IMG/VR virus record: IMGVR_UViG_3300032103_000073
From: a virus
Lineage: Duplodnaviria; Heunggongvirae; Uroviricota; Caudoviricetes
DNA length: 64,000 nucleotides
Direction: 5' to 3' (one strand)
In this document: piece after piece, positions 5,640 to 63,351 of the stretch
Layout: every line of letters starts with the position of its first letter
How positions within the stretch are numbered: position 1 is the stretch's first letter
Made by a program: the position numbers and the translations under genes
Notes under the pieces: generated by a model
What the model was told of the DNA's origin: nothing
Databases searched by the model: none
Seen by the model: the letters and a program-made list of their open reading frames with translations, nothing else

Positions 5640-5849
5640 ATGAACGAACGAATTTTATCACCACAACTACTCAAGTTAGTTCAAGATGCTGGCCCCGGGT
5701 ATTCGTTAGCCGATCCTAAATGGGTTAAAAAGTTCGCCGAGTTGATTGTCAGAGAATGTGCTATAATTGCTAATCGTGCTGAGAATACTGAAACCGAGAT
5801 ACGGTGTATGTATGATGTGATTACTGAACATTTCGGAGTTGAAGAATGA
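5640..5849 (+). CDS. FAELIVREC-family small protein
   Basis: KFAELIVRECA...EHFGVEE; paralogs at 5846, 33366, 60368 and 63139. Confidence 0.6.
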   Translation: MNERILSPQLLKLVQDAGPGYSLADPKWVKKFAELIVRECAIIANRAENTETEIRCMYDVITEHFGVEE

Positions 5850-6037
5850 ACGAACGAATTCAAGAACTCGCTGAACAGGCCAGCGACACTAGCGATTACG
5901 GACTTGAGTGTGTGACTGACAAATTTCTAGAACACTTTGCTGAGTTGATTGTTCGGGAGTGTGCTGATTTTGCGGCAAGTCAAGGATCCGGTTGGGAAGC
6001 AAGAAAATCAATTGAAAAACATTTCGGAGTTGAATGA
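5846..6037 (+). CDS. FAELIVREC-family small protein
   Basis: HFAELIVRECADF...KHFGVE; ATGA overlap with the upstream paralog. Confidence 0.6.
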   Translation: MNERIQELAEQASDTSDYGLECVTDKFLEHFAELIVRECADFAASQGSGWEARKSIEKHFGVE

Positions 6038-6206
6038 TGAAAACAATGTATGAAGTGATTATGATTGACGGGCACTGCCCGAGCGAAACCTGCTCCCTGG
6101 GCTTGTACTCGACTCGAGAGTCTGCTGAAATAACCATTGAGAAAGAGGCTCCTCAATATTCTGATCATATGATTTTTGAAATCGAAGAAAAGTATGTTGG
6201 CGAGTG
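6036..6206 (+). CDS. hypothetical small protein (56 aa)
   Basis: ATGA-coupled ORF not present in the track. Confidence 0.35.
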
Positions 6207-6219
6207 AATAGCAAATAAA

Positions 6220-6248
6220 TTGACACAAATTGATGTCTGCGTTATAAT
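6220..6248 (+). promoter_or_regulatory. conserved early promoter plus UTR cassette
   Basis: TTGACA-N17-TATAAT and GATACATAGCGTAAACAAACAGGAGTTAAAG before ATG 6281. Confidence 0.75.
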
Positions 6249-6280
6249 TGATACATAGCGTAAACAAACAGGAGTTAAAG

Positions 6281-6733
6281 ATGGGTACACGTTCGATTAT
6301 TGGTGTTATGCATGGTGATGTTTGCAAAAGCGTTTATTGCCATTGGGATGGCTATTTGGCTCACAACGGCAAAATCTTGCTGGACAACTACGACAGTGCT
6401 AAAGCCAATCACTTGGTTGCTTTGGGCGACATCAGCTCGCTTGCCGCCAAAATCGAAGTGCCTGATTTAGTTGAGCACACCTTTGACAAGCCCGCAGAAG
6501 GTATCACAGTGTTCTACGGTCGTGACCGTGGCGCGACCGGCACCGAGTTTCGTGTGTCACACACCTTCCAAGACTTCCTGGAACGTGCTGATAGTTGCGG
6601 CGCAGAGTATTACTATATTATGAAAGACGGTGTTTGGTACTGCGGTACTACTTACGCCTCGGGCGTTCTGGCTAACAAGTTGACTAGTTTGGCAGAAGCA
6701 ATTGCCCAAGAAGAATCTATGGCTACTATCTAA
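6281..6733 (+). CDS. hypothetical protein
   Basis: ORF; the track N-terminus MIHSVNKQELK is the translated UTR. Confidence 0.55.
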   Translation: MGTRSIIGVMHGDVCKSVYCHWDGYLAHNGKILLDNYDSAKANHLVALGDISSLAAKIEVPDLVEHTFDKPAEGITVFYGRDRGATGTEFRVSHTFQDFLERADSCGAEYYYIMKDGVWYCGTTYASGVLANKLTSLAEAIAQEESMATI

Positions 6734-7050
6734 TGGACTACGAAAAGCGTTATAACGAACAAGGACAAGTTGCAGTTCTAATCAGCCCGGGCTTCGGGGC
6801 TGGTTGGAGCACTTGGTCTGGCGAGCATGCAGAAGCTATGATCTTCGACAGCCGGTTGGTTGACTATGTCTTGCTCAACGATACTATAGGTTTGGGCGAA
6901 TACGCACAATCATTAGGCTACGACAGCTACATGGGCGGCGCCGAAGATGTTGAAGTGATTTGGGTAGATGCAGGTACTAGATTTGTTATTGAAGAATATG
7001 ACGGAAGCGAAAGCATCCTAACGTTTGAAGATTTGTCTTATATTGCATAA
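6733..7050 (+). CDS. hypothetical protein
   Basis: coupled ORF. Confidence 0.5.
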   Translation: MDYEKRYNEQGQVAVLISPGFGAGWSTWSGEHAEAMIFDSRLVDYVLLNDTIGLGEYAQSLGYDSYMGGAEDVEVIWVDAGTRFVIEEYDGSESILTFEDLSYIA

Positions 7051-7059
7051 GGATTAAAC

Positions 7060-7422
7060 ATGGCAGGCTATCAAGCAGTTTTAGAACTTCGTCGCATTGA
7101 AGCAGATCTGGATGCTATGGGTCTTATGCTTTGCAACCCTAAGCACGGTAGCTGGAGCGAAGAAACATATGGCGACCGTGCTGGAGTAAAGCCTAAAGAT
7201 GCAGATGCACTGCCTATCTACAGTCGTGATGCAGAATTGTTTACTGGCACACTAGAACAGATTCGTACTTGGATGATTGGTGTTAAGTGGGCACGTGAAT
7301 ATGACATGATGCTACGACTCTCTGACGACAAGAAGCGAGTAAAGAAAGAAGATGATTATCGCCATCGCGAAATGTTGCGCCGTCTGGCACACGACCACAC
7401 TAAAGTAAAAGAGGACCAATAA
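7060..7422 (+). CDS. hypothetical protein
   Basis: ORF. Confidence 0.5.
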   Translation: MAGYQAVLELRRIEADLDAMGLMLCNPKHGSWSEETYGDRAGVKPKDADALPIYSRDAELFTGTLEQIRTWMIGVKWAREYDMMLRLSDDKKRVKKEDDYRHREMLRRLAHDHTKVKEDQ

Positions 7423-7715
7423 TGACTGATGACAACAACCCAACAAAACCCGAAGACCTTAAAATTGTTTTTGCTGAAGGTTGCTTTGACAACTTCGAAG
7501 GCACACAGGAAGAACTAGACGAGATGATTGCAGAAATCAACCGCATGGTCACTAGCGGCGAAATCTTCGAAAAGAGTCGTCCCGTTGACCTTGACAACAT
7601 GGACGAAGAAGAACTCGTTGCACTTGCACAGGCAATGGGTTTGAATTTTGAGGAACTAGGTATTCCTGAAGAGCTTGCAGACTCGATTGCTAAAAAGCCA
7701 CGGTCACTACAATGA
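7422..7715 (+). CDS. hypothetical acidic protein
   Basis: ORF with ATGA overlap. Confidence 0.5.
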   Translation: MTDDNNPTKPEDLKIVFAEGCFDNFEGTQEELDEMIAEINRMVTSGEIFEKSRPVDLDNMDEEELVALAQAMGLNFEELGIPEELADSIAKKPRSLQ

Positions 7716-8038
7716 GTAGGTTTCTTGCCATGTGGGACTGCCAGGGTCTAGAATGTATGTTTGACATTACAGATCTCGACCACGATGCTATGATTGCAGG
7801 CATAAAAGACGAGCCATTTAAGACTCCTTTTAACTTGACTGCAATGATGCTTCGTGCCCGTTATAATAGTCAACGCAGTTATGAAATCTACACATTTGAA
7901 ACTGAAGACCAAGTCGACCTGCATGAAATGAAAACTATGTTTAATAATAGTCCGCAAGGTTTTGCAGAGCTTATTAGAGAAAAGGGTAATAAGATTTACA
8001 GCGACTATACTCCTAGCAATAAAAAGGTGATTGCATAA
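7712..8038 (+). CDS. hypothetical protein
   Basis: ORF. Confidence 0.5.
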   Translation: MSRFLAMWDCQGLECMFDITDLDHDAMIAGIKDEPFKTPFNLTAMMLRARYNSQRSYEIYTFETEDQVDLHEMKTMFNNSPQGFAELIREKGNKIYSDYTPSNKKVIA

Positions 8039-8259
8039 TGCCGCGAATATATACAGAAGTTGAAGTAGATGTAGACTTGGATGAGTTTGACGAAGAAGAT
8101 CTAATCGAAGAACTTGAACGCCGAGGTAAAGGTTTTGAGATTGCTAGTCGCAACGGAACTGAGATTGTTAGGGCGATACACGAAAAGCGCAGACTTGGGC
8201 AAGATTACCAGCGTGAACTTGACGAACTGATTTATCTTGCTATTGGCAAAGTTATATAA
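8038..8259 (+). CDS. hypothetical acidic protein
   Basis: ORF. Confidence 0.45.
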   Translation: MPRIYTEVEVDVDLDEFDEEDLIEELERRGKGFEIASRNGTEIVRAIHEKRRLGQDYQRELDELIYLAIGKVI

Positions 8260-8477
8260 TGACTTATCAGATTTTCCATCGAATTAAAATCCCATGCGGC
8301 GCCATTGCATCTTATGATGAAGGCTCGGGCTATGGGTATCGTTGCGAAGATTGCATGGCTGTTGTAGGTAGTATAGGGCAACCGCGCGAGTGTAAAGATA
8401 AAGCACTGGAATACAAGCTAATAGAAAAGCTAGGCGGACCCGGCTGGAATTATGCAGAACACGTTGTCAAAGACTAA
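8259..8477 (+). CDS. hypothetical Cys-rich protein
   Basis: ORF. Confidence 0.45.
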   Translation: MTYQIFHRIKIPCGAIASYDEGSGYGYRCEDCMAVVGSIGQPRECKDKALEYKLIEKLGGPGWNYAEHVVKD

Positions 8478-8498
8478 TACTCAAGTATTACCGTTTAA

Positions 8499-8527
8499 TT
8501 GACACAAATTGGCTCCTGCGCTATAAT
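8499..8527 (+). promoter_or_regulatory. conserved early promoter plus UTR cassette
   Basis: TTGACA-N17-TATAAT and the UTR before ATG 8560. Confidence 0.75.
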
Positions 8528-8559
8528 TGATACATAGCGTAAACAAACAGGAGCAATAA

Positions 8560-8925
8560 ATGGCACGTGAAACTAAAACACAACGACAAGCCCGCGAGCA
8601 AGCAGAGCAGTTTGCTCAGTTGTCGGTTGCCAAGTCTACCTATACAGAGCGTATGATGTCTGTGCTGGCCCGTGCTACTAAGTCGAACTTCGAACTGGAA
8701 GTTAAAGAAGCCCTGTTTGTACTAGAGGACCGAGACGACCGCCGTGCTGGGACTTTTACAGTGAATCCCGTGTGGAGTGAAATGGCAGACGTTGATTTGT
8801 ACAGCCTGGAGCAAGAAGTTTCTTGGAAAGAAGAATCCGTAGCAGAACGTGAGCGTGTTGCTAACCTGCGTAAGACTGCACTGTCCAAGCTGACTGCCGA
8901 AGAGCGAGAAGCACTAAGCCTTTAA
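8560..8925 (+). CDS. hypothetical protein
   Basis: ORF. Confidence 0.5.
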   Translation: MARETKTQRQAREQAEQFAQLSVAKSTYTERMMSVLARATKSNFELEVKEALFVLEDRDDRRAGTFTVNPVWSEMADVDLYSLEQEVSWKEESVAERERVANLRKTALSKLTAEEREALSL

Positions 8926-8934
8926 GGAAATAAA

Positions 8935-9180
8935 ATGAAAAATCGTTATGGTGACGAATACAGTTTTGACGCAGTAGATGCAAATACCTACACCATTGTA
9001 GGTGAGCTTGAGTACTGGCGATATGGCGGACGTGAAGGTCAAGAGCGTATGGACTTTACCGACTTGGGCTTTGTTGACCCTAGCGGCGGACCGTTTATTG
9101 AATTGGGCATGAAGATCGAAGGTCGAAAGATTGTCAATATCAGTGCCGTTGAAGATAACATTTATTTTAAGGTAGAATAA
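8935..9180 (+). CDS. hypothetical protein
   Basis: ORF. Confidence 0.45.
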   Translation: MKNRYGDEYSFDAVDANTYTIVGELEYWRYGGREGQERMDFTDLGFVDPSGGPFIELGMKIEGRKIVNISAVEDNIYFKVE

Positions 9181-9181
9181 C

Positions 9182-9931
9182 ATGAGTCAAATTCTAGTTT
9201 GGAAATGTGATCAAACGGGTAAACTGTTTGAGGATAAAAACAAGTACAAGGGTCACCTAAGTAAGCTGGCTCGCGAACGTAATACCAAGCGTAAGCTCAT
9301 GGTCGCAGAAGCTGTTGCTGATCAAAAGTGGAATGAACTCTACGAGTGCGAACAAACCATTGAGCAGTGGCGCGACATGGTTATTGCCAATCAAAACATG
9401 TTCTGGGCAGAAGCCGCAAAGACAGATCCGCATGACTGGAAGTGTGTTGGTAAATTGTCTGGTCGCAAGAATGGTGTTGTTTGCCCTGTCCCTGAACTGC
9501 TAGAGTTTACCACTTTTGATGTTCGCTGGAACCCTCGAGTTAGCAATAGCCACAGTTGTCCACACAATGGTGTGACTAACTGGTCTCCAAGTTGGAACGA
9601 AGACAAAACTGCACCTACTAGCTACCCTGGTTGGAGTGGCCGTGTTGAATGGATTGTTAAGTGGCCTAAAGAATGGGATGGCTGGTATCTGGGCAGTGAT
9701 CTGTTCCGCGACGGCTACAACACTCGCACTCGTGCTTACACCGGCACAGGTGGCGGTGGAGGTATGCGTTATAGCGAAAAGCATGGTTGCCATGTTCAGA
9801 GCTTTGGCTATGACTTCCGCATGTTTGCCGCAGACTGGCCGGGTATGGCTCGCGTTGTTGCTCGGGACCAGCTTGCAGAAGTCCTTAAAGGAAATCGGAC
9901 CAGCATTGATTATGCTCCGGAGCCGGCATGA
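9182..9931 (+). CDS. hypothetical Trp-rich protein (249 aa)
   Basis: ORF. Confidence 0.5.
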   Translation: MSQILVWKCDQTGKLFEDKNKYKGHLSKLARERNTKRKLMVAEAVADQKWNELYECEQTIEQWRDMVIANQNMFWAEAAKTDPHDWKCVGKLSGRKNGVVCPVPELLEFTTFDVRWNPRVSNSHSCPHNGVTNWSPSWNEDKTAPTSYPGWSGRVEWIVKWPKEWDGWYLGSDLFRDGYNTRTRAYTGTGGGGGMRYSEKHGCHVQSFGYDFRMFAADWPGMARVVARDQLAEVLKGNRTSIDYAPEPA

Positions 9932-10158
9932 AAGACTTTCTCGGGCAAGAACTTAACGTAGGTGACTATGTTATGTATATGAAACAACATTATCGTGAAC
10001 TTGGTATGGGAAAGATTACTAAGTTCACGCCCAAGAAGGTTCATGTTAAATGGGGCACAAGCGAGTGGGCAAGCATCCTCCAAACACCTGACCAACTGGT
10101 AAAAGTATCAGGTGAGGAAGTATTTGCCTACGCACTTAAAAATGGAATTGATGTATGA
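9928..10158 (+). CDS. hypothetical small protein (KOW/SH3-like paralog group)
   Basis: similar to 33104, 56634 and 23537 (VGD.V...K..KV...WG). Confidence 0.45.
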   Translation: MKDFLGQELNVGDYVMYMKQHYRELGMGKITKFTPKKVHVKWGTSEWASILQTPDQLVKVSGEEVFAYALKNGIDV

Positions 10159-10520
10159 ACGACACACTACTGCTCATCTTGCTATTGTTTACAAAACATT
10201 TTATTGTAGACTTTCCCTTGCAACATCGCTACCAATGGAGCAATAAAGGCACATACGGACACCCAGGCGGCATCTTGCACTCTTTTTTGCATGGCCTGGG
10301 CACTTATTTTTGTGTTGTTTGGTTCGCTCCTGCGGCAGCGCCATATTTGGCTGCTATTGACTATTTTGCACACTACCACATTGACTGGGCCAAAATGAAT
10401 ATCAACAAGCGATTGGGCTGGACGCCTGCTACACATGAACAGTTTTGGTGGTTGTTGGGCTTGGACCAATTTCTCCATGTATTGACATATATTGGCCTAG
10501 TTGCTATAATTACACCATGA
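10155..10520 (+). CDS. hypothetical membrane protein
   Basis: hydrophobic segments, His-rich. Confidence 0.4.
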   Translation: MNDTLLLILLLFTKHFIVDFPLQHRYQWSNKGTYGHPGGILHSFLHGLGTYFCVVWFAPAAAPYLAAIDYFAHYHIDWAKMNINKRLGWTPATHEQFWWLLGLDQFLHVLTYIGLVAIITP

Positions 10521-10786
10521 GCTTAACTTATTACAAAATTCGCAGTAAAAAGAATCCTGAAATGTTCCGCAAGGCCGATGGCACATGGAACGGCTCTGGC
10601 AAAGTCTACGACACTCTGGGCAAACTTCGTAGCACAATTACTCTTAATATGAACAGCTACAACGATTATACTCGCAAGCAAGTTCAAGACTGGGAAATTG
10701 TAGAGTACGAAGTTCGCGTCAAAGAAGTCAAACATCTAGCAGATGTTATTGATCCAAAGAAACTTTTTGAATTGTTAGGCAAATGA
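10517..10786 (+). CDS. hypothetical protein
   Basis: ATG 10517 overlaps the previous stop. Confidence 0.45.
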   Translation: MSLTYYKIRSKKNPEMFRKADGTWNGSGKVYDTLGKLRSTITLNMNSYNDYTRKQVQDWEIVEYEVRVKEVKHLADVIDPKKLFELLGK

Positions 10787-11073
10787 TTTTTTTAAAACTT
10801 AATCTCACAAACCCCTTATGGAATAATCGCTGGGCAAATATTCGAAATTGGTCCGGCAAAACTCCATGGAAGCACAAGTATTTCGAGTTCCAAATTATGA
10901 AGGACTCCTGTCTTGTAAATATCGAGTTTAACTGCAACTTTAGAACAGATCACGCAGGTTTTGGTCTAGGCCTCGGTCTTCTTGGCTATAGTGCAGACTT
11001 TACGTTTTATGATAGCCGTCATTGGGATGACGATTCTAACACATGGACTGAATATGAAAAAGATTTTCTATGA
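10783..11073 (+). CDS. hypothetical protein
   Basis: ORF. Confidence 0.4.
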   Translation: MIFLKLNLTNPLWNNRWANIRNWSGKTPWKHKYFEFQIMKDSCLVNIEFNCNFRTDHAGFGLGLGLLGYSADFTFYDSRHWDDDSNTWTEYEKDFL

Positions 11074-11515
11074 GAAAAAAGGCCGCCGATATGTTCCTGT
11101 CGCTGAGTACGACAATGATTTTCTCGATAGTTTTACAAAGGGTAATCACCTCGTTATGTGTTATCCTGGGGGCACTAGTCGTAGGTTTAATATTGAACCT
11201 GCTCTTGCACCTATGATTGCCGCTGGGCGTCTTGCAGAAGATGCTATGTGTACAGCTATGAACAAGGCCAGCGAGCTAAAGCCCAGCAAGAAACCTATCA
11301 CCGAAGAACAGCGAGCAGCTTGGCAACATCTTGCACAAACATTTGGTGACGACATGTATACACTGCATGGTGTTAGTGTTCGCGACATTGTTGAAGCAGG
11401 CATCCAAGCACAAATAGCGGAAACTGAAAAGTTGATGAAGCATCCAGCAGTTAAAGAAGCCTACGACCATTTTATGTTTGTTGCAAAACTGGCCTATGAA
11501 GATCCGGCCAAATAA
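11054..11515 (+). CDS. hypothetical protein
   Basis: probable start at ATG 11054 (track ORF from 10982). Confidence 0.45.
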   Translation: MKKIFYEKKGRRYVPVAEYDNDFLDSFTKGNHLVMCYPGGTSRRFNIEPALAPMIAAGRLAEDAMCTAMNKASELKPSKKPITEEQRAAWQHLAQTFGDDMYTLHGVSVRDIVEAGIQAQIAETEKLMKHPAVKEAYDHFMFVAKLAYEDPAK

Positions 11516-11747
11516 GAATCCCAAACGAACTAGTGTAGTAGTTGAGTTCGATGAATTCTTTTTCTATACAACTAGCTCGGATGCACTAGCTGGAGATATC
11601 AATCAACTAGCAGAAAGTTTTTCAGCCCGGCGTTTGTCTTACAACATGTGGGAATTTGTCTCGCAAGAAGTTGCAGACAAGTTTGTTTTTATGTATAATT
11701 TAGCTGACTATGAAAATAAACGTAAAGCGAACAGATCGAAGACATAA
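11478..11747 (+). CDS. hypothetical protein
   Basis: ORF. Confidence 0.4.
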   Translation: MLQNWPMKIRPNKNPKRTSVVVEFDEFFFYTTSSDALAGDINQLAESFSARRLSYNMWEFVSQEVADKFVFMYNLADYENKRKANRSKT

Positions 11748-12027
11748 GTGCTCTGATAAGTTTAAGTATTACATTGATGTTGATTACGACACATTTGGAC
11801 AACGAATAAGTAGCCCTGAACTATTATCGGGAAAGTTTTTTGAACTTAGGGTATGGTGCTGGGCTACCTGGGGTCCTAGTAGAGAAGCAGACCAATACGA
11901 TACACGACCGCAGGCATTTGTCCTGGATCAAAACCCTCATTGGTCTTGGTTAAACGATGAGTATAGGCAACGGCTTTACCTTGCAGGCACCGATGAGGCA
12001 GCATTGTTTGCATTGAAGTGGTCATGA
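11710..12027 (+). CDS. MF-x-LRWS-motif family small protein
   Basis: C-terminus ...EAALFALKWS; first member of tandem array 1. Confidence 0.6.
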   Translation: MKINVKRTDRRHKCSDKFKYYIDVDYDTFGQRISSPELLSGKFFELRVWCWATWGPSREADQYDTRPQAFVLDQNPHWSWLNDEYRQRLYLAGTDEAALFALKWS

Positions 12028-12221
12028 CACGCATTGAATACTGGACTGTCTTGAGAAATTTAAAGACAGAATGGTCGCGTCAAAAGCCTGGCAATGATTT
12101 TGATGATTACGTTTTAGAAAAAACGGGTATTGTAATTTGTTATACAGAAGGCCATATTAGTAGCGAATATAAAGTTGCAAACAAAGAACAATATCTGATG
12201 TTTACATTAAAGCACACATGA
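12024..12221 (+). CDS. MF-x-LRWS-motif family small protein
   Basis: C-terminus ..YLMFTLKHT; TGGTCATGA stop-start overlap. Confidence 0.6.
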   Translation: MTRIEYWTVLRNLKTEWSRQKPGNDFDDYVLEKTGIVICYTEGHISSEYKVANKEQYLMFTLKHT

Positions 12222-12475
12222 CACGAGTTTACCATTGGTCGTTCCACAACGGCGTAGATTCTATCAATCCCGGTAGCAATTTTCCTATGGTGCCACCGCG
12301 CAGTTGGACCTGTTGGGTCTACCCTGAAGACGATCGAGAGTTTGAACAATGGATGGAAACCAACTGCCCAACAGCAGAATGTATCCATCGTTTTAATAGC
12401 GGTGATCCTATGTACACTGTGTCAATTACCAGTGATGAAGAATGTATGATGTTTAAACTTAGGTGGCAAGTATGA
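12218..12475 (+). CDS. MF-x-LRWS-motif family small protein
   Basis: C-terminus ..ECMMFKLRWQV. Confidence 0.6.
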   Translation: MTRVYHWSFHNGVDSINPGSNFPMVPPRSWTCWVYPEDDREFEQWMETNCPTAECIHRFNSGDPMYTVSITSDEECMMFKLRWQV

Positions 12476-33365: not shown

Positions 33366-33581
33366 ATGAATGAACTAATTGCACAACTAGCAGAACAAGC
33401 GGCACAGGCTACAGCCGCAGAACCTAACGAAGTAAACTTGGAAGTAGAAGTCGATGACACCAAGTTCCAAATCCCTGGCAACTTTATTGAGAAGTTTGCA
33501 GAGTTGATTGTTCGGGAATGTTCTACACTAGCGTATGACGGTCCCGGAGGTATCTTGGAACATTTTGGAGTTGAAGAATGA
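33366..33581 (+). CDS. FAELIVREC-family small protein
   Basis: KFAELIVRECSTL...EHFGVEE. Confidence 0.6.
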   Translation: MNELIAQLAEQAAQATAAEPNEVNLEVEVDDTKFQIPGNFIEKFAELIVRECSTLAYDGPGGILEHFGVEE

Positions 33582-33702
33582 AAACAATACTAGCAGTCGT
33601 CGGCGGCTTTGTTCTTGCACTAGCTATTTTAGGTACGTTTAATATCGGCAATTTTGTTTTAATGTATAGCCCTGATAAAATCTCTTGCGTTAAGGAACAA
33701 CA

Positions 33703-34089
33703 ATGAAAATCGGAACAAGTCTCGGGAAGTGTGTTAAGAGTCTGCTTGACGGTGATGTTGCCTACGAGGATGTGTTGTTCGTTGTAAGCAACACTTTGGG
33801 TCCTGATGAGGAAAAGCTCAAGGACATCATGCAACAATATTATTACGGATACGCAGATAACCCTGCATATGATCTTTCTGAGCATACTCTTGAAGAAGCC
33901 CAGGATATGGCAGTACGATTGTTTAGAAACGGCAAGTTGTTCCAACCCCGTATCCATATTAAAGACCTATGGGGTAATGCCCATGGCCTAAAGGACACTT
34001 GGTATGATATCGTCCCCAGCCTTGGTAGTAGCGAAAGCGCCAAGAATGCATGGGATGCTTATGTTATGATGAGCAAGTTGAGCCAATGA
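33703..34089 (+). CDS. hypothetical protein
   Basis: ORF. Confidence 0.5.
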   Translation: MKIGTSLGKCVKSLLDGDVAYEDVLFVVSNTLGPDEEKLKDIMQQYYYGYADNPAYDLSEHTLEEAQDMAVRLFRNGKLFQPRIHIKDLWGNAHGLKDTWYDIVPSLGSSESAKNAWDAYVMMSKLSQ

Positions 34090-48139: not shown

Positions 48140-48346
48140 CAAGTTAAGAAATTAACTGTTTTGATAGATGTTGTTGGGAGCGATCCCCCACAACAGAGAT
48201 GTAAGGTCCTCAACTGCGAGGCGTTAGCAACATTTATCATCTTGTTCTTTAAAAATTTGCAGTGTTGTTTAGGCTGATTGACGGCAATCGAAAAGCAGTC
48301 TGAGTCTTGTCCCCGGCGCACCGCTTTGCCGAGCGTACCGCAGGGA
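48140..48346 (+). other. structured leader A (candidate small RNA), homologous to leader B
   Basis: shared 5' box AGAT(A/G)(C/T)AAGTTAAG(A/C)AATTAACT and a GGGA(A)GCGATC hairpin. Confidence 0.4.
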
Positions 48347-48420
48347 GTCTCTATAGTGTAAGGGTAGCACGCCAGCTTGTAAGAGTTGGAGGATTGGGTT
48401 CGAATCCCAATAGAGTTTAA
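48347..48420 (+). tRNA. tRNA-Gln-scaffold paralog with an 8-nt anticodon loop (TTGTAAGA); no CCA
   Basis: D-arm and T-arm nearly identical to the tRNA-Gln at 45012; stem CCAGC/GTTGG encloses 8 nt. Confidence 0.4.
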
Positions 48421-55982: not shown

Positions 55983-56014
55983 ACATACATAGCAAAACAA
56001 AACAGGAGTTAGAG

Positions 56015-56245: not shown

Positions 56246-56256
56246 GGAACTGACAA

Positions 56257-56627
56257 TGGCAAGCCTGTTCGTTATCCGCGAAAAGAACACTAACACCTAC
56301 TGCACTGGTAGCAATCGTTGCACTTTTAATGCCGACCTGCAAAGTGCGGCTATGTTTAACAAGCGTGAAAACGCAGAGAAAGCGGCTCGTACGATGTTTG
56401 CCAAGGCTGACAAAGGTGAGGTAAACCGCTACGGTGGATGGACTTGGGAAGTCTACAACGAAGATGGCACTGTTCAACACTTCCATCACGCACACCTAAA
56501 GGCCTACATCGAACTCCTGCGGAACAGCACAAACGATCACACTGACCGTATCAAATGGATCGAAGAAGAAGTTAAAGAACAACGATGCGAAATGGAAGTC
56601 CTGGAAGTAAAGTTATCTTTGATTTAA
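56257..56627 (+). CDS. hypothetical protein
   Basis: ATG 56257 after SD AAGGAA. Confidence 0.5.
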
Positions 56628-56633
56628 TAATAT

Positions 56634-56885
56634 ATGAAAGACATTGTTAAGCAAGAACTGGCGGTTGGGAATATGGTTGTTTTTAACCCGCCAAAATACA
56701 AAGGCTTGGTCACAGGCACGGTTGTCGGCTTCACTCCCAAAATGATTAAAGTGAAATACTCAGCCGCTTGGGTTAGCAATTGGGTCGATGGTCAACGAGT
56801 CAATTGGGATATTACTAATGTTTACCCTACAGATGTTATGAAAGTTGACGAACAATTGGCATTTATTCATACATTGAGTGTTTAA
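56634..56885 (+). CDS. hypothetical small protein (KOW/SH3-like paralog group)
   Basis: paralog of 9928. Confidence 0.45.
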   Translation: MKDIVKQELAVGNMVVFNPPKYKGLVTGTVVGFTPKMIKVKYSAAWVSNWVDGQRVNWDITNVYPTDVMKVDEQLAFIHTLSV

Positions 56886-56914
56886 TTGGCACAAATTGGT
56901 TTTGGTGCTATAAT
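56886..56914 (+). promoter_or_regulatory. conserved early promoter
   Basis: before ATG 56946. Confidence 0.7.
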
Positions 56915-56945
56915 ACTTGTATAGTAAGAAGCAAAGGATAACACA

Positions 56946-57152
56946 ATGGGTTTTGAAACAGTGGTTCTGGACAAGGTTGCACGAGTTCTTAAAAACGACA
57001 ACTCTGCAAGTTTCTTCTGCGGTACGCTGAGTGTTATTTGTACACGAGCAGAAGCCCGCACAGTCCTGCATCAGCTGAACAAGGACTACAACAACAAGGT
57101 AGAGATGAGCAAAGATGGCTCGTATGGCTACCTATTTGATTTTACTGCATAA
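56946..57152 (+). CDS. hypothetical protein
   Basis: ORF. Confidence 0.45.
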   Translation: MGFETVVLDKVARVLKNDNSASFFCGTLSVICTRAEARTVLHQLNKDYNNKVEMSKDGSYGYLFDFTA

Positions 57153-57161
57153 GGAATAAAA

Positions 57162-57725
57162 ATGCCCTGGATACAAAATGTCAGCATGAGCGATGTCAAG
57201 CGCGGCTTGCATTTCGAGGCCGGCGAAAATAGCATGCTGATTCAGATTGTTGACCCAGCATATGAGTTTCCTGCACCGTTGAAGCAGTTTAAAGAAGTTC
57301 ATCAGTTTGAATTTCTCGATGTAGAAGCAACTGACTTGGAGTTTGCAGAGTTTGCCTGCACACAAGAGCAAGCAGACCGCTTGGTGGAACTGCTAACTCA
57401 TGCTATGGACAAACGCATGAACGTTCTCGTGCATTGCCATGCAGGTGTTTGCCGCAGTGGTGCAGTCTGCGAAGTAGGTGTTATGATGGGATTTAGCGAC
57501 ACAGAAGTGTTTCGCAGTCCTAACCTGCTGGTCAAGCACTTAATGATGAAGCGACTTGGATGGACCTATGATGCCGATGAAAAGCATAGCACAAACGGCT
57601 ATACTACTCCCAGCGGCATTATTGTTCCCAAGCAAGAATTAGATTGGACAAACGATAACGAAAAGGTGTTTACACTGGCTGATGCCCGGCGCAAGTATCG
57701 TTTTAACACCGGAGAAGATGTATGA
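57162..57725 (+). CDS. protein tyrosine/dual-specificity phosphatase
   Basis: CX5R P-loop VHCHAGVCRSG. Confidence 0.65.
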   Translation: MPWIQNVSMSDVKRGLHFEAGENSMLIQIVDPAYEFPAPLKQFKEVHQFEFLDVEATDLEFAEFACTQEQADRLVELLTHAMDKRMNVLVHCHAGVCRSGAVCEVGVMMGFSDTEVFRSPNLLVKHLMMKRLGWTYDADEKHSTNGYTTPSGIIVPKQELDWTNDNEKVFTLADARRKYRFNTGEDV

Positions 57726-58057
57726 GCAAGCGACTGATTTTAGATTGCAAAGCAAAGTATTACGTTGACTTTGATGATTTTGACGGCAAGACTCCCGAGG
57801 AGATCATCGAGACTATGCAAGCACTCCGTGCAGAAGTAGGCACCGATGATGTGTACTACTCCATCGAAAGCTATGGATACGATGGCGGCAAGGAACTGAC
57901 TTTGCGCGAACGCCGCGAGGAAACTGACAAGGAATACAACAAGCGCATCGCAGAAGAAAAGAAAGTTAAGGCCAAAGCAAAAGAAGCCAAGGCTACAAAG
58001 GAAGCTAAAGAGCTAGCTGAGTTTTTGCGTTTGAAGAAGAAGTTCGAAAAGGCTTAA
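57722..58057 (+). CDS. hypothetical Lys/Glu-rich protein
   Basis: ORF. Confidence 0.45.
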   Translation: MSKRLILDCKAKYYVDFDDFDGKTPEEIIETMQALRAEVGTDDVYYSIESYGYDGGKELTLRERREETDKEYNKRIAEEKKVKAKAKEAKATKEAKELAEFLRLKKKFEKA

Positions 58058-58058
58058 T

Positions 58059-58289
58059 ATGGATAAACTAGAAAAAATTCTCAGCAAGTCACCTGAAGAA
58101 AAGAAAATTCATCGGCTGGAGCGAGAAATCGAAAAGTATAAAGATCAAATTAAAGATTTGGAAAAAGAAAACGCTCTGTTAGAAAAAAGTGTTGCTTCGG
58201 AACGAGAATGGCGCAGGGATTTCCAACGCCTAATGAAGGCAGCAGTGCATGAAGATAATTTAACAGACTATGAACGGAGATATTGGTAA
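58059..58289 (+). CDS. hypothetical coiled-coil protein
   Basis: ORF. Confidence 0.4.
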   Translation: MDKLEKILSKSPEEKKIHRLEREIEKYKDQIKDLEKENALLEKSVASEREWRRDFQRLMKAAVHEDNLTDYERRYW

Positions 58290-58520
58290 TTGTTTAAGGT
58301 AATTTACAATAACGTCGAGCAAGAGTTCGACACATTAGATTTGGCAATGAGGCATGCAAAACTGCTCAATGCCTTTGTCACAATTAAAAGCGACACGTTT
58401 GAAATTGTAGGCAAGTTTGGAGTAGATAGTGTCCGAGACGGACGATGTCCCGACGGCGTTGTCTACGACTGGAATAAAGCAAGTCGTATCGGTCGTGTTA
58501 AGAAAGAACGGGTAGTATAA
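58290..58520 (+). CDS. hypothetical protein
   Basis: ORF. Confidence 0.4.
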   Translation: MFKVIYNNVEQEFDTLDLAMRHAKLLNAFVTIKSDTFEIVGKFGVDSVRDGRCPDGVVYDWNKASRIGRVKKERVV

Positions 58521-58536
58521 AGTACTACCTTTTTAT

Positions 58537-58565
58537 TTGACACTAATTGGTTTTGGACATATAAT
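58537..58565 (+). promoter_or_regulatory. conserved early promoter
   Basis: before ATG 58594. Confidence 0.7.
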
Positions 58566-58593
58566 AACTGTATTAAACAGAAAGGAGCACGAT

Positions 58594-58806
58594 ATGACTA
58601 GATTCTTCTGGCAAGATGCCAAAGGTCTCAAAGCCGATGTTGAACGTCATCGTGCTAAAGAGGCTGAACTGGATGCTCGTATCGCAGAACTCGAAGGCAA
58701 AGATGATCCTATGAGCATCGCAGCCATGCGAGTGTATCGCAGATTTCGTGCGCAACTGCAACAAAGCAAGGCTGATGTTGTAAGCAAGATTGGAAAAAGA
58801 AAATGA
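58594..58806 (+). CDS. hypothetical protein
   Basis: ORF. Confidence 0.45.
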   Translation: MTRFFWQDAKGLKADVERHRAKEAELDARIAELEGKDDPMSIAAMRVYRRFRAQLQQSKADVVSKIGKRK

Positions 58807-59345
58807 AAAAATGGATCACCTCGGATTTACATTTCGGGCATGCCAATATTATGAAGTTCTGCCCGGTGACCCGTGTGGGATTCACCGATGTGACAGACAT
58901 GCGAGAACAGATGATCGCAGAATGGAATGCAAGTGTTGCACCAGAAGATGAAACATTTATCTTGGGCGACTTTGCATTTTTGCCTGCGAAAGATGCGGTT
59001 GCTATTCTGCGTAGACTAAATGGCACAAAGATTTTGATTGAAGGCAATCACGACCGCAAACTGTTGAACGACCCGAGCTTCCGCGGGGAGTTTAAAGAAG
59101 TACATCAGTACTTGCGTTATAATCATGAAGGTACTACTGTGATTATGTTGCACTACCCTATCTGGGAGTGGGATCAAATGCATCGCGGTAGTGTGCATTT
59201 TTATGGGCATGTGCATGGCGCAAAGACTGGCATGGAAAAGTATCGTGCCCGTGATGTAGCGTTTGACGCTACGGGACGAGTCGTTAGTAACTTGGATGCT
59301 ATGATTGCAGATGCATTAAAGGGCGAAATTCGCAGTCATCACTAA
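58803..59345 (+). CDS. metallophosphoesterase (Ser/Thr phosphatase-like)
   Basis: SDLHFGH, GDFAF, GNHDRK and GHVHG motifs. Confidence 0.65.
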   Translation: MKKWITSDLHFGHANIMKFCPVTRVGFTDVTDMREQMIAEWNASVAPEDETFILGDFAFLPAKDAVAILRRLNGTKILIEGNHDRKLLNDPSFRGEFKEVHQYLRYNHEGTTVIMLHYPIWEWDQMHRGSVHFYGHVHGAKTGMEKYRARDVAFDATGRVVSNLDAMIADALKGEIRSHH

Positions 59346-59362
59346 ACAATTTCGGAGCATAC

Positions 59363-59770
59363 ATGGTGCTTTCTAAAAACAGCTTAAACAAACTAAAGTC
59401 CAGTATGATGTCATCGGATTCGAGTGCAGATTATGCTGGACCTGTTTATAACTATTTGGTCTACGGTTTCCATCCGGGTAGCTTTTTTCGAGCACTGTTA
59501 GCTAACGATTTTATGAGTGCAATTGCTCACAGTCATCCTGCTAACAGCGTATATGAGCTTAAAAAGCTAGTAGGATGGCTATGTCAAACTTTCCCACCCG
59601 ATGTTGTTTATGGTAATTATGAAGTAGTAGAAGGTTGGTGCAAGAAAACTGACGAAGAACGGTATCAAGTATTACTAGATGCTAAACTTGTATACGATAA
59701 AGAAACTGAAATGATGCTAATCCTACAGGGAAAACTGCAAGCAGATGTACGGGAAATCGAATTTGTTTAA
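59363..59770 (+). CDS. hypothetical protein
   Basis: ORF. Confidence 0.45.
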   Translation: MVLSKNSLNKLKSSMMSSDSSADYAGPVYNYLVYGFHPGSFFRALLANDFMSAIAHSHPANSVYELKKLVGWLCQTFPPDVVYGNYEVVEGWCKKTDEERYQVLLDAKLVYDKETEMMLILQGKLQADVREIEFV

Positions 59771-59799
59771 TTGACACAAATTCGGTTTGGCGTTATAAT
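59771..59799 (+). promoter_or_regulatory. conserved early promoter
   Basis: before ATG 59830. Confidence 0.7.
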
Positions 59800-59829
59800 A
59801 CTTGTATAGTAAGAAACAAGGAGTCAGTC

Positions 59830-60366
59830 ATGGAAGATTTTACCATGGATCAAAGCGGTATGGATATCGTGCGTAAGGCACAAGTCTATGCCATGGCTGC
59901 TCATGCGGCTGTTGGACAAAAGCGTAAGTACACCAACGAACCCTACATTGTTCACCCTGCAGAAGTTGCCAGCATCGTTGCCAGTGTTCCCGGTAGTACT
60001 CCTGACATGGTTGCGGCCGCGTGGCTTCATGACGTTATCGAGGATACTGGTTGCACATTTACTGATGTGCATATGGCTTTTGGTATCGACATTGCTACTC
60101 TCGTTGGCTGGTTGACTGATGTGAGCCGGCCCGAAGATGGCAATCGTGCCCACCGCAAGGCTATGGACCGTGAGCATACTGCACAAGCACCTGCTGAGGC
60201 ACAGACCATCAAGTTGGCTGACCTTATCAGCAACAGCCGTAGCATCATGCAACATGACCCGGAGTTTGCAAAGACTTACCTCGAAGAAAAGCGTCAGCTT
60301 CTTGCAGTTATGACCAAGGGTGACCGCAGTCTTCATGCAGAAGCTAGCAAGTTTGTTGGAGTTTGA
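59830..60366 (+). CDS. HD-domain phosphohydrolase
   Basis: H..H...HPAEV and WLHDVIEDT (H-HD-D metal ligands). Confidence 0.6.
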   Translation: MEDFTMDQSGMDIVRKAQVYAMAAHAAVGQKRKYTNEPYIVHPAEVASIVASVPGSTPDMVAAAWLHDVIEDTGCTFTDVHMAFGIDIATLVGWLTDVSRPEDGNRAHRKAMDREHTAQAPAEAQTIKLADLISNSRSIMQHDPEFAKTYLEEKRQLLAVMTKGDRSLHAEASKFVGV

Positions 60367-60367
60367 A

Positions 60368-60634
60368 ATGAACGAACAAATGCTGGAACTTTATAGACGG
60401 GCTCAAGTGCCGTATACTGCTATTGACCCGTCTAATAATATGCCTTATGAGACAACTACTTTTAGTGCGGAAAAGTTCGCCGAGTTGATTGTTCGGGAAT
60501 GTTTGAACCAATTACAAGAATTAACGCCACTGAAAATTTCCAATGAAGAACACCAGAAATTAGTTGATGCTACACATATAGCGGCAGTGAGTATCGGTGT
60601 TGCTAAGATTAAACATCATTTCGGAGTTGAATAA
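60368..60634 (+). CDS. FAELIVREC-family small protein
   Basis: KFAELIVRECLNQ...HHFGVE. Confidence 0.55.
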   Translation: MNEQMLELYRRAQVPYTAIDPSNNMPYETTTFSAEKFAELIVRECLNQLQELTPLKISNEEHQKLVDATHIAAVSIGVAKIKHHFGVE

Positions 60635-61179
60635 TGAAGTTAGTTTTAATTCGAGGATTGCCCGGTTCGGGTAAAAGCACAATGGCACAAACTTTGTGCT
60701 ATAGCCCAGACTGGGTACATCAAGAAGCAGATCAGTTTTGGATGCATAACGGAGAGTACCGTTTTGATGCCGCTCGGTTGCGCGAAGCTCACGAATGGTG
60801 TCAATCTAAGACTCGCGAAGCATTGGCCGCAGGCTGTGATGTTGTGGTCTCTAACACCTTTACTACCATCAAAGAACTGCGTCCTTACTTTGACATTGCA
60901 AAAGAATTTAACATTGTGCCCAATGTATTTGTAGCACAAAACGACTTTGGTAGTGTTCACAATGTTCCTGCTGAGACTTTGGCTAAGATGCGTGAGCGTT
61001 TTCAGTTCAATATTGACAGCCTGTTTGCAGAGTACCGGCCTGCAAAGGTTATCCCTATTGCTGTAGACGGGGAAGATGGATGGCACACTTGTCCCTACAA
61101 GATGGAAATCCACGACGACTTCGAGTCGCTGTGTCAATGTTCAGATGAACAAGAGCACGAATGTGCTATGGATGTTTAA
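60634..61179 (+). CDS. P-loop polynucleotide-kinase-like protein
   Basis: Walker A GLPGSGKST; PNK/zeta-toxin-type kinase fold size. Confidence 0.55.
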   Translation: MKLVLIRGLPGSGKSTMAQTLCYSPDWVHQEADQFWMHNGEYRFDAARLREAHEWCQSKTREALAAGCDVVVSNTFTTIKELRPYFDIAKEFNIVPNVFVAQNDFGSVHNVPAETLAKMRERFQFNIDSLFAEYRPAKVIPIAVDGEDGWHTCPYKMEIHDDFESLCQCSDEQEHECAMDV

Positions 61180-61180
61180 T

Positions 61181-61429
61181 ATGGGCTGGGTAGTTTATGC
61201 TAAAGGCGATGGAGAAATTCTTCGCTATTACAAGTCGGAGAAGGCAGCACAGAGCCAAGTCACAGGACACAATAAAAAACTGTTTCTGGACATCCTGCAT
61301 AACGGCCATAGTCGTTATGAAAGTCGCAAGGAGTGGGCATACTGCAACTGGCACGACTTTGAAGAAGTTTATAAAAAGTATTATGAACATAACAAGCACC
61401 ATATGCTGGTTATGAGCTCATTTCGCTAG
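61181..61429 (+). CDS. hypothetical protein
   Basis: probable ATG 61181 (track from 61076). Confidence 0.4.
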   Translation: MGWVVYAKGDGEILRYYKSEKAAQSQVTGHNKKLFLDILHNGHSRYESRKEWAYCNWHDFEEVYKKYYEHNKHHMLVMSSFR

Positions 61430-61439
61430 AGTCGAAAAA

Positions 61440-61468
61440 TAGACATAAATCGGTTTGAGTGTTATAAT
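61440..61468 (+). promoter_or_regulatory. promoter (TAGACA-N17-TATAAT)
   Basis: before ATG 61497. Confidence 0.55.
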
Positions 61469-61496
61469 ACTTTTTTGCATAAAATAGAGTTATATA

Positions 61497-62396
61497 ATGT
61501 TTAAAGACGAATTGAAAAAGTATGTAGAGACTTCGGGCTTAGTGAACATGAAGCCCGCTGGGGACGGAATCTTTGTTCTCAAGTATCGCAAAAAAGTTTT
61601 TTATGACAATCTTTGGGACGAGTATCTGGAACACTGCCGCGGGTCAGTGATTGATAAAGACTTTAATCTAATCTCTTATCCGTTTCAGAAAATCTACAAC
61701 TATGGTATCGAAAAGGAAGCACCTGTGCTAGCGGACGACACTGAAGTTTTAGCATATCGCAAAGTCAATGGCTTTATGGTAGCCATGACTTGGTACAATG
61801 GCGACATCTTAGTTTCAACTACAGGTTCTACAGACAGTCCTTATGTTACTATGGCAAAAGAAATGATGTTGACTCATCAATCTTGGGCAGACTGGCAGTT
61901 GGCACTTAACCGTTCAGACATGGATGGCATGACCGTTATGTTTGAGTGTGTTCATCATAACGACCCGCACATCATTCCAGAAAAGCCAGGTATGTATGTA
62001 TTAGGCTATCGTAACAACCAGTTTGGTTCTAAAGTGGGGCACGATCCTTGCGTATTGCAAGACTTGGCGATTGCATTTAACTGCCACAAGCCAGAAAGCG
62101 TAACAGCGTCCATGACGGCAATAAAGAACTTGGCCAAGGAATGCAAGCACGAAGGGTTTGTATTCTATACCGCTGATGGTGTAAGTGCTAAGATCAAGTC
62201 GCCATACTACTTGACTTCAAAGTGGGTTGCTCGCAATCCACGTACAGATAAGTTAGTAGACTTGAACAAGGACATCAAGCACAATATCGACGAGGAGTAT
62301 TATGGGCTCATCGACGCAATCCGATTAAACATCGCGGCTTACACCGCGATGAATGAACAGGAAAGATTAGAGTGGGTTCGTAAGTTCCTCGGATAA
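61497..62396 (+). CDS. ATP-dependent RNA ligase-like nucleotidyltransferase
   Basis: motif I KVNGF; EGFVFY (motif IV); K-x-K (motif V). Confidence 0.6.
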   Translation: MFKDELKKYVETSGLVNMKPAGDGIFVLKYRKKVFYDNLWDEYLEHCRGSVIDKDFNLISYPFQKIYNYGIEKEAPVLADDTEVLAYRKVNGFMVAMTWYNGDILVSTTGSTDSPYVTMAKEMMLTHQSWADWQLALNRSDMDGMTVMFECVHHNDPHIIPEKPGMYVLGYRNNQFGSKVGHDPCVLQDLAIAFNCHKPESVTASMTAIKNLAKECKHEGFVFYTADGVSAKIKSPYYLTSKWVARNPRTDKLVDLNKDIKHNIDEEYYGLIDAIRLNIAAYTAMNEQERLEWVRKFLG

Positions 62397-63083
62397 CTTA
62401 CAGTTATCACCGTGCCATCGTTTAAGATTGCTCGCACTTACTTCTTTAGAACAGTGAGGGCATCTTAACCTTGGACGGTTTGCGTGATAGGGATTTTCTT
62501 TAATCTTGTTGATATGTTCTGTTGATTTGGGCTTGCTCTGCTTTGCCTTTATTTCTGCCGCATACTCAACACCAAATCGTTCCTCGTAAGTTTTTCCAGC
62601 ATAGTGTTCTCGCATAGTTTGCTTGAACTCATCTGTTTTGGGCTGCGAATGTTTGCCCTTGCCGTTGGCACTCATTTTCTTTCTTGTGCTCTCTTTGTGA
62701 GTTTTGCTATACATAGGATTAAGTTCGCCTCTACGAGATTTACCATACCAAGGATTTTTCTTTCCGCGAATGTCTGCGTGAAAAGTCCCAGCACCGGTTG
62801 CTTGGTTTATGTATAACGGATTCTTGTGTACCTGGTGCTTTTTATGAAAGTATTCTTCTTGTTCTGCCGCTTCTTTTTTAGTAGCATGAACAGTAAGTAT
62901 TTTGGTTTCGAAAAGGTGTGGATTTTGTTCAAGTTCCTCTAACCAAATCTGTTTGTAAAGTTTGCTGGAAACGGAACCGTGATATCCGTTTTGAACATTT
63001 TTTACATTGGAACGCCCAATGTAAAACATAGGCATTTTGGTCCCTTTGTAAATGGTTAGATAGGTACAGTATTCCATTGACAT
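62367..63083 (-). CDS. GIY-YIG homing endonuclease (Seg-like)
   Basis: YLTIYKGTKMPMFYIGRS GIY-YIG; basic C-terminal region; only large minus-strand gene in this block. Confidence 0.7.
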   Translation of the reverse strand: MSMEYCTYLTIYKGTKMPMFYIGRSNVKNVQNGYHGSVSSKLYKQIWLEELEQNPHLFETKILTVHATKKEAAEQEEYFHKKHQVHKNPLYINQATGAGTFHADIRGKKNPWYGKSRRGELNPMYSKTHKESTRKKMSANGKGKHSQPKTDEFKQTMREHYAGKTYEERFGVEYAAEIKAKQSKPKSTEHINKIKENPYHANRPRLRCPHCSKEVSASNLKRWHGDNCKLSEELTNPL

Positions 63084-63138
63084 TTTTCCTTTTCGGTGCT
63101 ATACTTATTTATATGAATACTATCCTTTTGTTGATAAA

Positions 63139-63351
63139 ATGAATAAACTAATCAAAGAACTTAAACACCAAGCAACAGACTATGTTGATAGTATTGATGA
63201 TGGGCTTGGTATAGAACATTATAGAGAATTTGTGGATCTAAAGTTCGCTGAGTTGATTGTAGGGGAATGTGCTAAAGTTGCTTTGTGGGAGCAAGGCAAG
63301 GGATATGATGTTGGTGAAATTATCCTAAAACATTTTGGAGTAAAAGAATGA
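63139..63351 (+). CDS. FAELIVREC-family small protein
   Basis: KFAELIVGECAKV...KHFGVKE. Confidence 0.55.
   Translation: MNKLIKELKHQATDYVDSIDDGLGIEHYREFVDLKFAELIVGECAKVALWEQGKGYDVGEIILKHFGVKE

Follow-up and report, generated by a model that had tools for sequence, protein, structure and literature searches.

Three in-frame DNA blocks as candidate recombination linkers in a mosaic small-protein family of uncultured tailed phages

Known shuffling systems and the family in the window

Modular shuffling mediated by the promoter-early stem-loop (PeSL) cassettes of T4-type phages (Arbiol et al. 2010, PMC2839356; Comeau et al. 2014, PMC4122927) is the closest known mechanism to the one considered here. 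We analyzed a stretch of 64,000 nucleotides of DNA from a tailed phage (IMG/VR record IMGVR_UViG_3300032103_000073; referred to below as the window), which contains five copies of a small-protein gene family whose members share short blocks of nearly identical DNA. Like the PeSL cassettes, these blocks are short conserved repeats in hyperplastic early regions that carry an expression signal and apparently act as exchange points between unrelated flanking sequences. A PeSL, however, consists of an intergenic promoter and terminator, whereas the linkers here lie in coding sequence, as three in-frame blocks of a single protein family, and their expression signal is a Shine-Dalgarno sequence combined with an overlapping start codon. 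The promoter and stem-loop of a PeSL have no counterpart in the blocks, which lie within open reading frames (ORFs), show no excess folding and contain no promoter in the promoter scan, the strong promoters nearby being separate from them. The kind of mechanism is known, while the protein family that carries it is itself undescribed; a literature search with the motif string and keywords returned nothing relevant on this family.

Several other systems share parts of this design. The internal-protein genes of T4-type phages are hypervariable, and their constant capsid-targeting leader has been proposed as a recombination point; they resemble the family in encoding small polymorphic proteins with a short constant N-terminal block and in clustering in plastic regions, but the family has three blocks, not one, and no sequence similarity to them. 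The linker or boundary sequences of the modular theory of phage evolution and the pilE/pilS mini-cassettes of Neisseria are likewise short conserved stretches around variable cassettes that permit homologous recombination. The pilE/pilS system belongs to other organisms and to another protein, and its expressed-versus-silent layout is absent from the family, in which all copies look expressible. Translational coupling by an ATGA stop/start overlap, with the Shine-Dalgarno sequence placed within the upstream gene, is a textbook mechanism, and the 3'-terminal block of the family (block 2 below) has exactly this design. The family differs in that the module is near invariant over thousands of family genes and extends into CAT-TTC (His-Phe), and in that family genes use it 2.7 times more often than neighbouring genes do. 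In polymorphic toxin and CDI/Rhs loci, a conserved junction motif marks the point at which C-terminal modules are exchanged (Zhang et al. 2012, PMC3482391), so that there, as here, a short conserved junction precedes diverse C-terminal modules that are replaced from cassettes by recombination. Those toxins are large, secreted and followed by a cognate immunity gene, whereas the family proteins have about 70 amino acids (aa), vary in both halves and have mutually unrelated downstream partners. The family does not have the defining features of the polymorphic toxins, and probably not those of the T4 internal proteins. Nor does it resemble the target of a diversity-generating retroelement, in which a template repeat matches the variable region in length and differs from it at adenines, as its segments differ wholesale in sequence and length; a reverse transcriptase gene was not searched for.

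Conserved blocks, mosaic segments and a translation signal

The five family genes, named c1 to c5 in window order, are all ORFs on the + strand: c1 (5640-5849, 69 aa), c2 (5846-6037, 63 aa), c3 (33366-33581, 71 aa), c4 (60368-60634, 88 aa) and c5 (63139-63351, 70 aa). A preliminary description of the window, made from the sequence, had reported five genes with two shared short blocks and otherwise divergent sequence, and all five were found again at the same places. The alignment of the five products (63-88 aa) is indeed limited to the blocks, with the correction that a third block has to be added at the 5' end. Each gene opens with block 0 (start, MNERI); an N-variable segment then leads to block 1 ((K)FAELIVREC), and a C-variable segment to the closing block 2 (HFGVEE plus stop). 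In the window copies the three blocks take the forms MNE(R/L/Q)I, (K)FAELIV(R/G)EC and HFGV(E/K)(E). Block 0 occupies positions 5640-5654, 5846-5860, 33366-33380, 60368-60382 and 63139-63153 in c1 to c5, respectively, and reads ATGAACGAACGAATT in c1 and c2. Block 1 occupies 5733-5759, 5936-5962, 33495-33521, 60476-60502 and 63244-63270, with G in place of R in c5, and block 2 occupies 5829-5849, 6020-6040, 33561-33581, 60617-60637 and 63331-63351, the 21-nt match in c2 extending 3 nt beyond the stop codon. For c1 the ORF list gives a TTG start at 5619, and the family alignment favours the ATG at 5640.

The blocks are specific to these loci within the window. The 27-nt block 1 pattern with at most one mismatch and the 21-nt block 2 pattern with at most two mismatches each matched five times in the window, at the block starts given above, with no match beyond the five loci, and neither pattern matched dinucleotide-shuffled sequence (0 matches for each). 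Searching the window in all six frames with a profile of the five copies added no further member. Over the relatives described below, the block consensus is ATGAACGAACGAATT for block 0, followed by AAGTTCGCCGAGTTGATTGTKCGGGAATGT and CATTTCGGAGTTGAAGAATGA. The ATG within the GAATGT of block 1 was considered as an out-of-frame internal start and rejected, as this frame runs into a stop after 5 codons in c1.

The preliminary description proposed that the blocks are conserved at the nucleotide level, beyond what amino-acid constraint would give, and this is supported. At the 13 columns with an invariant amino acid in the five copies, the mean pairwise codon identity was 0.685, compared with 0.464 +/- 0.053 expected from a window-only permutation drawing on the window codon usage (p = 1.5e-4). 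All five copies use GAG, TTG, ATT, TGT, CAT and GGA at their block positions; in the long ORFs of the window GAG, TTG and GGA account for 20%, 27% and 18% of the codons for their own amino acids. The F, A and V codons vary among the five copies. For the relatives, a profile search of 80 IMG/VR loci gave 257 family ORFs, all lying on the query strand and up to 10 of them within 8 kb; 216 of the 257 are distinct at the DNA level. At the block positions of the 216 genes a single codon nearly always prevails, usually one that is uncommon in the rest of these loci: CGA is used for the Arg at position 4 in 151 of 157 cases (background 13%), AAG in 93% (41%), GCC in 85% (19%), GAG in 92% (19-29%), TTG in 91% (25%) and GGA in 98% (20-30%), and GTT and TGT are each used in 90%. 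The same preferences recur across loci of 34-49% GC, and taking the family's own non-block codons as the reference led to the same outcome. Synonymous divergence (pS) between loci is 0.15 in block 0, 0.32 in block 1 and 0.24 in block 2, compared with 0.57-0.59 in the variable segments, even for the closest pairs (segment shared at >=60% amino-acid identity). Within shared variable segments, the ratio of nonsynonymous to synonymous divergence (dN/dS) is ~0.19-0.23. Judged by this sequence record, the family is real and coding, and it appears to be under purifying selection.

The segments between the blocks are mosaic. The preliminary description had offered recurrent recombination at the blocks as one possible cause of their conservation, and this possibility is supported by swapped N and C segments, by the ends of shared DNA tracts and by a junction in the relative locus L146. 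Among 226 proteins, 719 of the 798 pairs with N-variable segments >=60% identical have unrelated (<30%) C-variable segments, and 104 of the 197 pairs with shared C segments have unrelated N segments. These proteins form 136 N clusters and 147 C clusters, with 20 N clusters joined to at least two C clusters (up to 30) and 29 C clusters joined to at least two N clusters. Such half-relatives were found for three of the five window copies. The C-variable segment of c1 is common to L001:4007, P0095, P0096, P0100, P0116 and P0120, whose N segments are unrelated; the N segment of c4 is common to 35 listed proteins with unrelated C segments; and c5 has half-relatives on both sides, its N segment occurring in six proteins with unrelated C segments and its C segment in three with unrelated N segments. 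The short C segment of c3, STLAYDGPGGILE, recurs behind other N segments in the fused tandem proteins P0005 and P0019. Fused tandem relatives (150 and 131 aa) occur among P0005, P0019 and P0048, and one of them is an internal duplication joined at FAELIV.

The same pattern is visible in the DNA. Comparison of window positions 5540-6260 with positions 3900-4650 of L001 revealed no similarity before block 1 of c1 and ~95% identity from there; this tract runs on through the C segment and block 2, crosses the ATGA junction and ends just after block 0 of c2, beyond which the two are again unrelated. L146 carries a family gene with other N and C segments at the identical ligase-relic junction occupied by c5 in the window. 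In L134 and L168 the ligase starts with MNK, its ATGAAC being derived from the block 2/block 0 junction, and in L121, L135 and L146 the ligase is coupled straight to a family gene where the window has a promoter. In these alignments the blocks are where exchanges appear to start and stop, and family genes seem to be gained and lost at gene junctions. Two loci from other samples, L081 and L082, repeat the c5 arrangement, and the same segment combinations were found in independent sources for P0013/P0038 and for P0011/P0115. A 68-aa ORF next to the family gene in L146 (2545-2751) begins MNEQMKELVKQAG but has no block 1, so that other small families may also possess block 0 and helix 1.

Block 2 contains a linear translation signal. 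Its GGA-GTT contains a GGAG at positions -11 to -8 relative to the next ATG; an A-rich spacer and the ATGA come next. This GGAG coincides with the G-rich Shine-Dalgarno peak at -11 to -8 in 292 overlapped junctions of non-family genes. Both features of a translationally coupled pair are present, namely a stop/start overlap and, within the upstream ORF, a Shine-Dalgarno sequence at about -8 to -12, and the downstream genes are predicted to be coupled accordingly. The preliminary description had stated that every copy ends in GAATGA over the start of the next gene; c1, c2, c3 and c5 do so with a 4-nt ATGA overlap, through which c1 and c2 are joined as a tandem pair, whereas c4 ends in GAATAATG, a TAATG with a 1-nt overlap with the kinase start.

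Its further statement that the family is always coupled to a downstream gene has to be weakened to an enrichment. An ATGA overlap follows 150 of 226 family genes (66%) versus 264 of 1,101 other genes in the same loci (24%), with 28 of 112 (25%) for the genes of the window, and 26 of the 226 family junctions have 1-base overlaps. In an independent count the ATGA end was present in 161 of 213 family genes, and the partner was a family member in 47 cases and another ORF (median 66 aa) in 114. The partners are diverse, 118 downstream ORFs falling into 90 clusters with 48 singletons. No fixed partner family exists among them, and coupling appears to be an enriched generic property, not a fixed gene pair. 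Their diversity rules out a fixed two-gene system, either toxin/antitoxin-like or of an adaptor with an effector, and together with the 47 of 161 ATGA partners that are family members it does not correspond to a toxin/immunity cassette. A block 2/block 0 query matched the cultured phages PEi20 and Barba, and these matches were rejected because their translations showed unrelated genes with a similar design of ribosome-binding site (RBS) and overlap. Since these unrelated genes end in LLGIEE or HLGGEE followed by ATGA, the G-x-E-E ending is a common by-product of this design.

Explaining the blocks

The explanation that we favour, with a probability of roughly 0.68, is that the blocks are in-frame recombination linkers, and block 2 in addition an expression module, in a large uncurated small-protein family. 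The family would comprise acidic, probably three-helix proteins of ~60-90 aa, present in multiple copies in the early-gene regions of uncultured tailed phages, with the three blocks working as recombination linkers within the coding sequence. Homologous exchange in islands of 15-30 nt, between paralogues of a genome and between co-infecting phages, would reassort the N and C segments and would also carry whole genes to new junctions, giving rise to a combinatorial repertoire. The exchange itself, or selection that keeps exchange possible, would hold the synonymous sites of the blocks near identical, while the variable segments would evolve as ordinary proteins under purifying selection. In block 2, GGA-GTT would supply the GGAG, and GAA-GAA-TGA the spacer and the overlapping ATG of the next gene, so that a family gene may pass its ribosomes to whichever gene lies downstream. 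The blocks themselves, their surplus of synonymous conservation, the mosaic of segments, the place of the Shine-Dalgarno sequence and the coupling enrichment are shown directly; for blocks 0 and 1, we infer that recombination, rather than another nucleotide-level function, keeps them constant.

A number of observations do not sit easily with recombination linkers. Few exchanges are recent and near-identical: anchored ungapped extension yielded 8 and 6 long tracts, 6 and 4 of them ending at a block, which is too few to decide the breakpoints. The hit ends of an all-against-all BLASTN comparison were dominated by block-only hits and did not resolve the breakpoints either. The bipartite graph of N and C clusters contains no closed cycle, and all relatives are metagenome assemblies, so that some chimeras at the repeated blocks are possible. 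Within block 1, a run of 20 nt is 90-100% fixed and is followed by a free base, a variable codon and then GAATGT; the free base is the third position of the Val in the middle of the block (major base 45%), whose neighbours are 90-100% fixed. Simple gene-conversion tracts do not predict such a free position, and it is better explained by site-specific selection on a nucleotide-level function. Finally, the third-position identity of block 1 is 0.79 within a locus and 0.79 between loci. This equality gives no sign of homogenisation inside one genome, and concerted evolution within a genome was rejected on this ground; exchange within a shared gene pool fits the equal identity.

The free Val position and the equal identity count in favour of the possibility that block 1, or the block 2/block 0 junction, is the site of a dedicated enzyme such as a recombinase, a homing or nicking endonuclease, an RNA-binding repressor or an RNase. 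Such an enzyme would make the shuffling or the regulation programmed, the constraint looks site-specific (the 20-nt fixed run, the free base and GAATGT), block identity is equal within and between genomes, and c5 as well as its L146 counterpart adjoin homing endonuclease genes. However, no recombinase or nuclease is consistently linked to the family, whose neighbours are highly diverse; a small GIY-YIG family present in 11 loci does not adjoin a family gene in any of them, endonuclease genes are missing from the vicinity of most family genes, and none of the blocks is palindromic. A general linkage to homing endonucleases was rejected, as it is confined to the c5 site and its counterpart in L146. 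We consider a dedicated enzyme unlikely, if the strongest of the rival accounts, and a dedicated factor acting on block 1 remains a minority possibility. About as unlikely is that the N-terminal block is a capsid-targeting or protease-processing signal, as in the T4 internal proteins, and that the family is packaged and injected. The T4 internal proteins are polymorphic behind a constant leader, and a hydrophobic-x-Glu motif (IKE, IRE, LAE and others), which resembles the cleavage motif of the T4 prohead protease, lies within residues 4-12 in 357 of 431 members (83%), the motif being unspecific in Glu-rich helices. The genes stand in units under sigma-70-like early promoters among early-type genes, and a capsid signal would leave two further conserved blocks unexplained.

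The remaining accounts are less probable still. If the blocks were parts of a structured regulatory RNA, for example a hairpin gating downstream translation, the translation signal in block 2 and the lower predicted pairing of block 0 than of the rest of the gene (0.35 vs 0.57) would find an explanation. The mean folding z-score over 50 family genes, though, was -0.01, hence without excess folding (the five window copies range from +1.6 to -1.3), and an Rfam search of the window returned tRNAs only. By eye there is no complementarity between the blocks, block 1 lacks a CUCC for the GGAG, and the spacing between blocks ranges from ~14 to >40 codons. The shared regulatory RNA element suggested in the preliminary description is in this structural sense very improbable, and survives as the linear signal of block 2. 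An equally slim chance attaches to the mosaic being an artefact of assemblers that joined different family genes at the repeated 27-30-nt blocks. The relatives are all short-read assemblies, and most of their contigs are short, but the c5 arrangement recurs in two other samples, the P0013/P0038 and P0011/P0115 combinations come from independent sources, and a dN/dS near 0.2 within segments implies long independent histories in different partners. The blocks are moreover shorter than the reads and than the large k-mers of current assemblers. Least probable of all is that the blocks are conserved solely through the need for their residues, the DNA conservation being amino-acid constraint plus codon bias. 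In the structural model each block does fall on a helix, block 0 where helix 1 starts, block 1 in the core of helix 2 and block 2 where helix 3 ends, and the variation of the F, A and V codons among the window copies would be expected. Speaking decisively against residue need alone are the mostly rare codons that are 85-98% fixed over 216 genes and 34-49% GC, the permutation result, and a synonymous divergence 2-4 times lower in the blocks than in adjacent shared segments.

Recombination linkers with an expression module could also serve a wider purpose. The linkers may reshuffle the surfaces of a small acidic three-helix scaffold, within genomes as well as between them, and so yield thousands of binder variants against host defences, with the portable Shine-Dalgarno/start cassette capturing downstream genes; we regard such a combinatorial repertoire as possible but distinctly tentative, all the more so in its stronger version, in which block 1 serves as the target of a dedicated factor for recombination or regulation. 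The proteins may form a diversifying set of binders, host-takeover or anti-defence factors. If they are such a diversifying repertoire, the block sequences would be ready primers or probes for surveys of lake repertoires, and could also be used to follow phage-phage exchange through time. The family offers a quantifiable case of linker-mediated modular shuffling inside coding sequence, which has so far been described mainly for the intergenic PeSL cassettes, and an example of synonymous sites that would be held constant by recombination and an overlapping translation signal.

The protein family and the surroundings of the five copies

The family ranks among the larger uncurated small-protein families of environmental phages, often with several copies per genome, and is represented by at least 8,451 cluster representatives (50% identity) at E <= 1e-3. 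Profile searches of Pfam-A, PHROGs v4 and the PDB sequences gave no significant match for the five copies or for 107 members. An AlphaFold2 model from 107 sequences is a three-helix bundle (pLDDT 85), with helices 3-15, 25-44 and 49-60 in c2, and its structural neighbours included none that was informative; the protein is accordingly predicted to be an acidic three-helix bundle. Members have a median isoelectric point (pI) of 4.86 and a net charge of -6, and the pI is <5.5 in 86% of them vs 39% of the neighbouring small ORFs. One Cys is invariant and one His nearly invariant among the members, but a fixed Cys-His site in one chain is unlikely because the distance between block 1 and block 2 varies from ~14 to >40 residues. 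Searches of the phage collection returned no match for the 35-nt block 1 consensus, none for window positions 59000-64000 by megablast and nothing at 1e-3 for c2 and c3 by tblastn; the consensus protein at E <= 10 had a single match, a metagenomic Manatee Spring contig. In 185,579 species genomes the family was found only on 12 small contigs of metagenome-assembled genomes, including bins named after the lakes La Plata and Erken. It has been seen only in uncultured phages, apparently of freshwater.

The genes downstream of the copies fit the preliminary description and comprise a small ORF, a hydrophobic micro-ORF, a kinase and an RNA-ligase relic, all on the + strand. The ATG of a 57-aa ORF (6034-6207) with a weak DUF7336 match under the Pfam cut-off overlaps the stop of c2 (ATGA), and that of the hydrophobic micro-ORF (33578-33706, 42 aa) overlaps the stop of c3 in the same way. 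A homologue of the micro-ORF in L001 (within 2488-2706) lies behind a non-family gene. Joined to c4 by the TAATG junction is a P-loop kinase of 181 aa, polynucleotide-kinase-like by its AAA_33 domain (60634-61179; E = 5.4e-12). The gene upstream of c4, with an HD_4 domain (59830-60366), ends KFVGV with GGAGTTTGAAATG before the c4 start and so resembles block 2; its end is either a generic RBS design or a leftover of an earlier family gene.

The relic, a 33-aa remnant of the ancestral C-terminal tail of the RNA ligase (63348-63449), is started by the ATGA that closes c5. The RNA ligase itself (61497-62396, + strand) shares no more than 45% identity with the ligase of Acidovorax phage ACP17, its nearest relatives hinting at a host that may be a freshwater betaproteobacterium, and its last ~30 codons are a GC-richer replacement tail, only ~60% identical to the 33-codon relic. 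Between the ligase and c5 lies a free-standing homing endonuclease gene on the - strand (62367-63083; NUMOD3, E = 2.3e-5), with a putative GIY-YIG-like N-terminus recognised by eye alone. Most of 80 related ligases (L097-L176) are intact and end in a tail of the relic type, and between the relics of the window and of L146 (region 3001-5120) 12 of 102 nt differ, 11 of these synonymously. This pattern suggests either independent homing into functional ligases or a micro-protein still under selection. Just past the c5 region, a near-identical phage contig (L081, 2164-4122) carries TctB and TctA of a tripartite tricarboxylate transporter, which may be auxiliary metabolic genes. The small GIY-YIG family mentioned above is represented in the window by a 104-aa ORF (4755-5069, ~570 nt upstream of c1; Pfam E = 0.0011, under the cut-off), with homologues in 11 related loci, in none of which it is adjacent to a family gene.

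Sigma-70-like promoters on the + strand precede several of these units. The one at 5271-5299 (11/12 matches) heads the unit formed by the ORFs at 5332 and 5555, c1, c2 and the ORF at 6034; that at 59771-59799 (12/12) heads the HD_4 gene, c4 and the kinase; and that at 63077-63105 (11/12) lies directly 5' of c5. Further perfect or near-perfect promoters (12/12, 11/12) were found at 6220-6248, 4720-4748 and 61440-61468, again all on the + strand. Such promoters are characteristic of an early region that a phage has transcribed by the polymerase of its host.

The window also contains 32 + strand tRNA genes between 37652 and 54390. Among them, Arg(tcg), Leu(caa), Gly(tcc) and Lys(ctt) decode the rare codons on which the blocks are fixed (CGA/CGG, TTG, GGA and AAG). 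At 48346-48419 ARAGORN reports a tRNA with a four-base anticodon (gtaa, type unknown), where Rfam also has a tRNA (46 bits); it could be frameshift-suppressor-like or a miscall.

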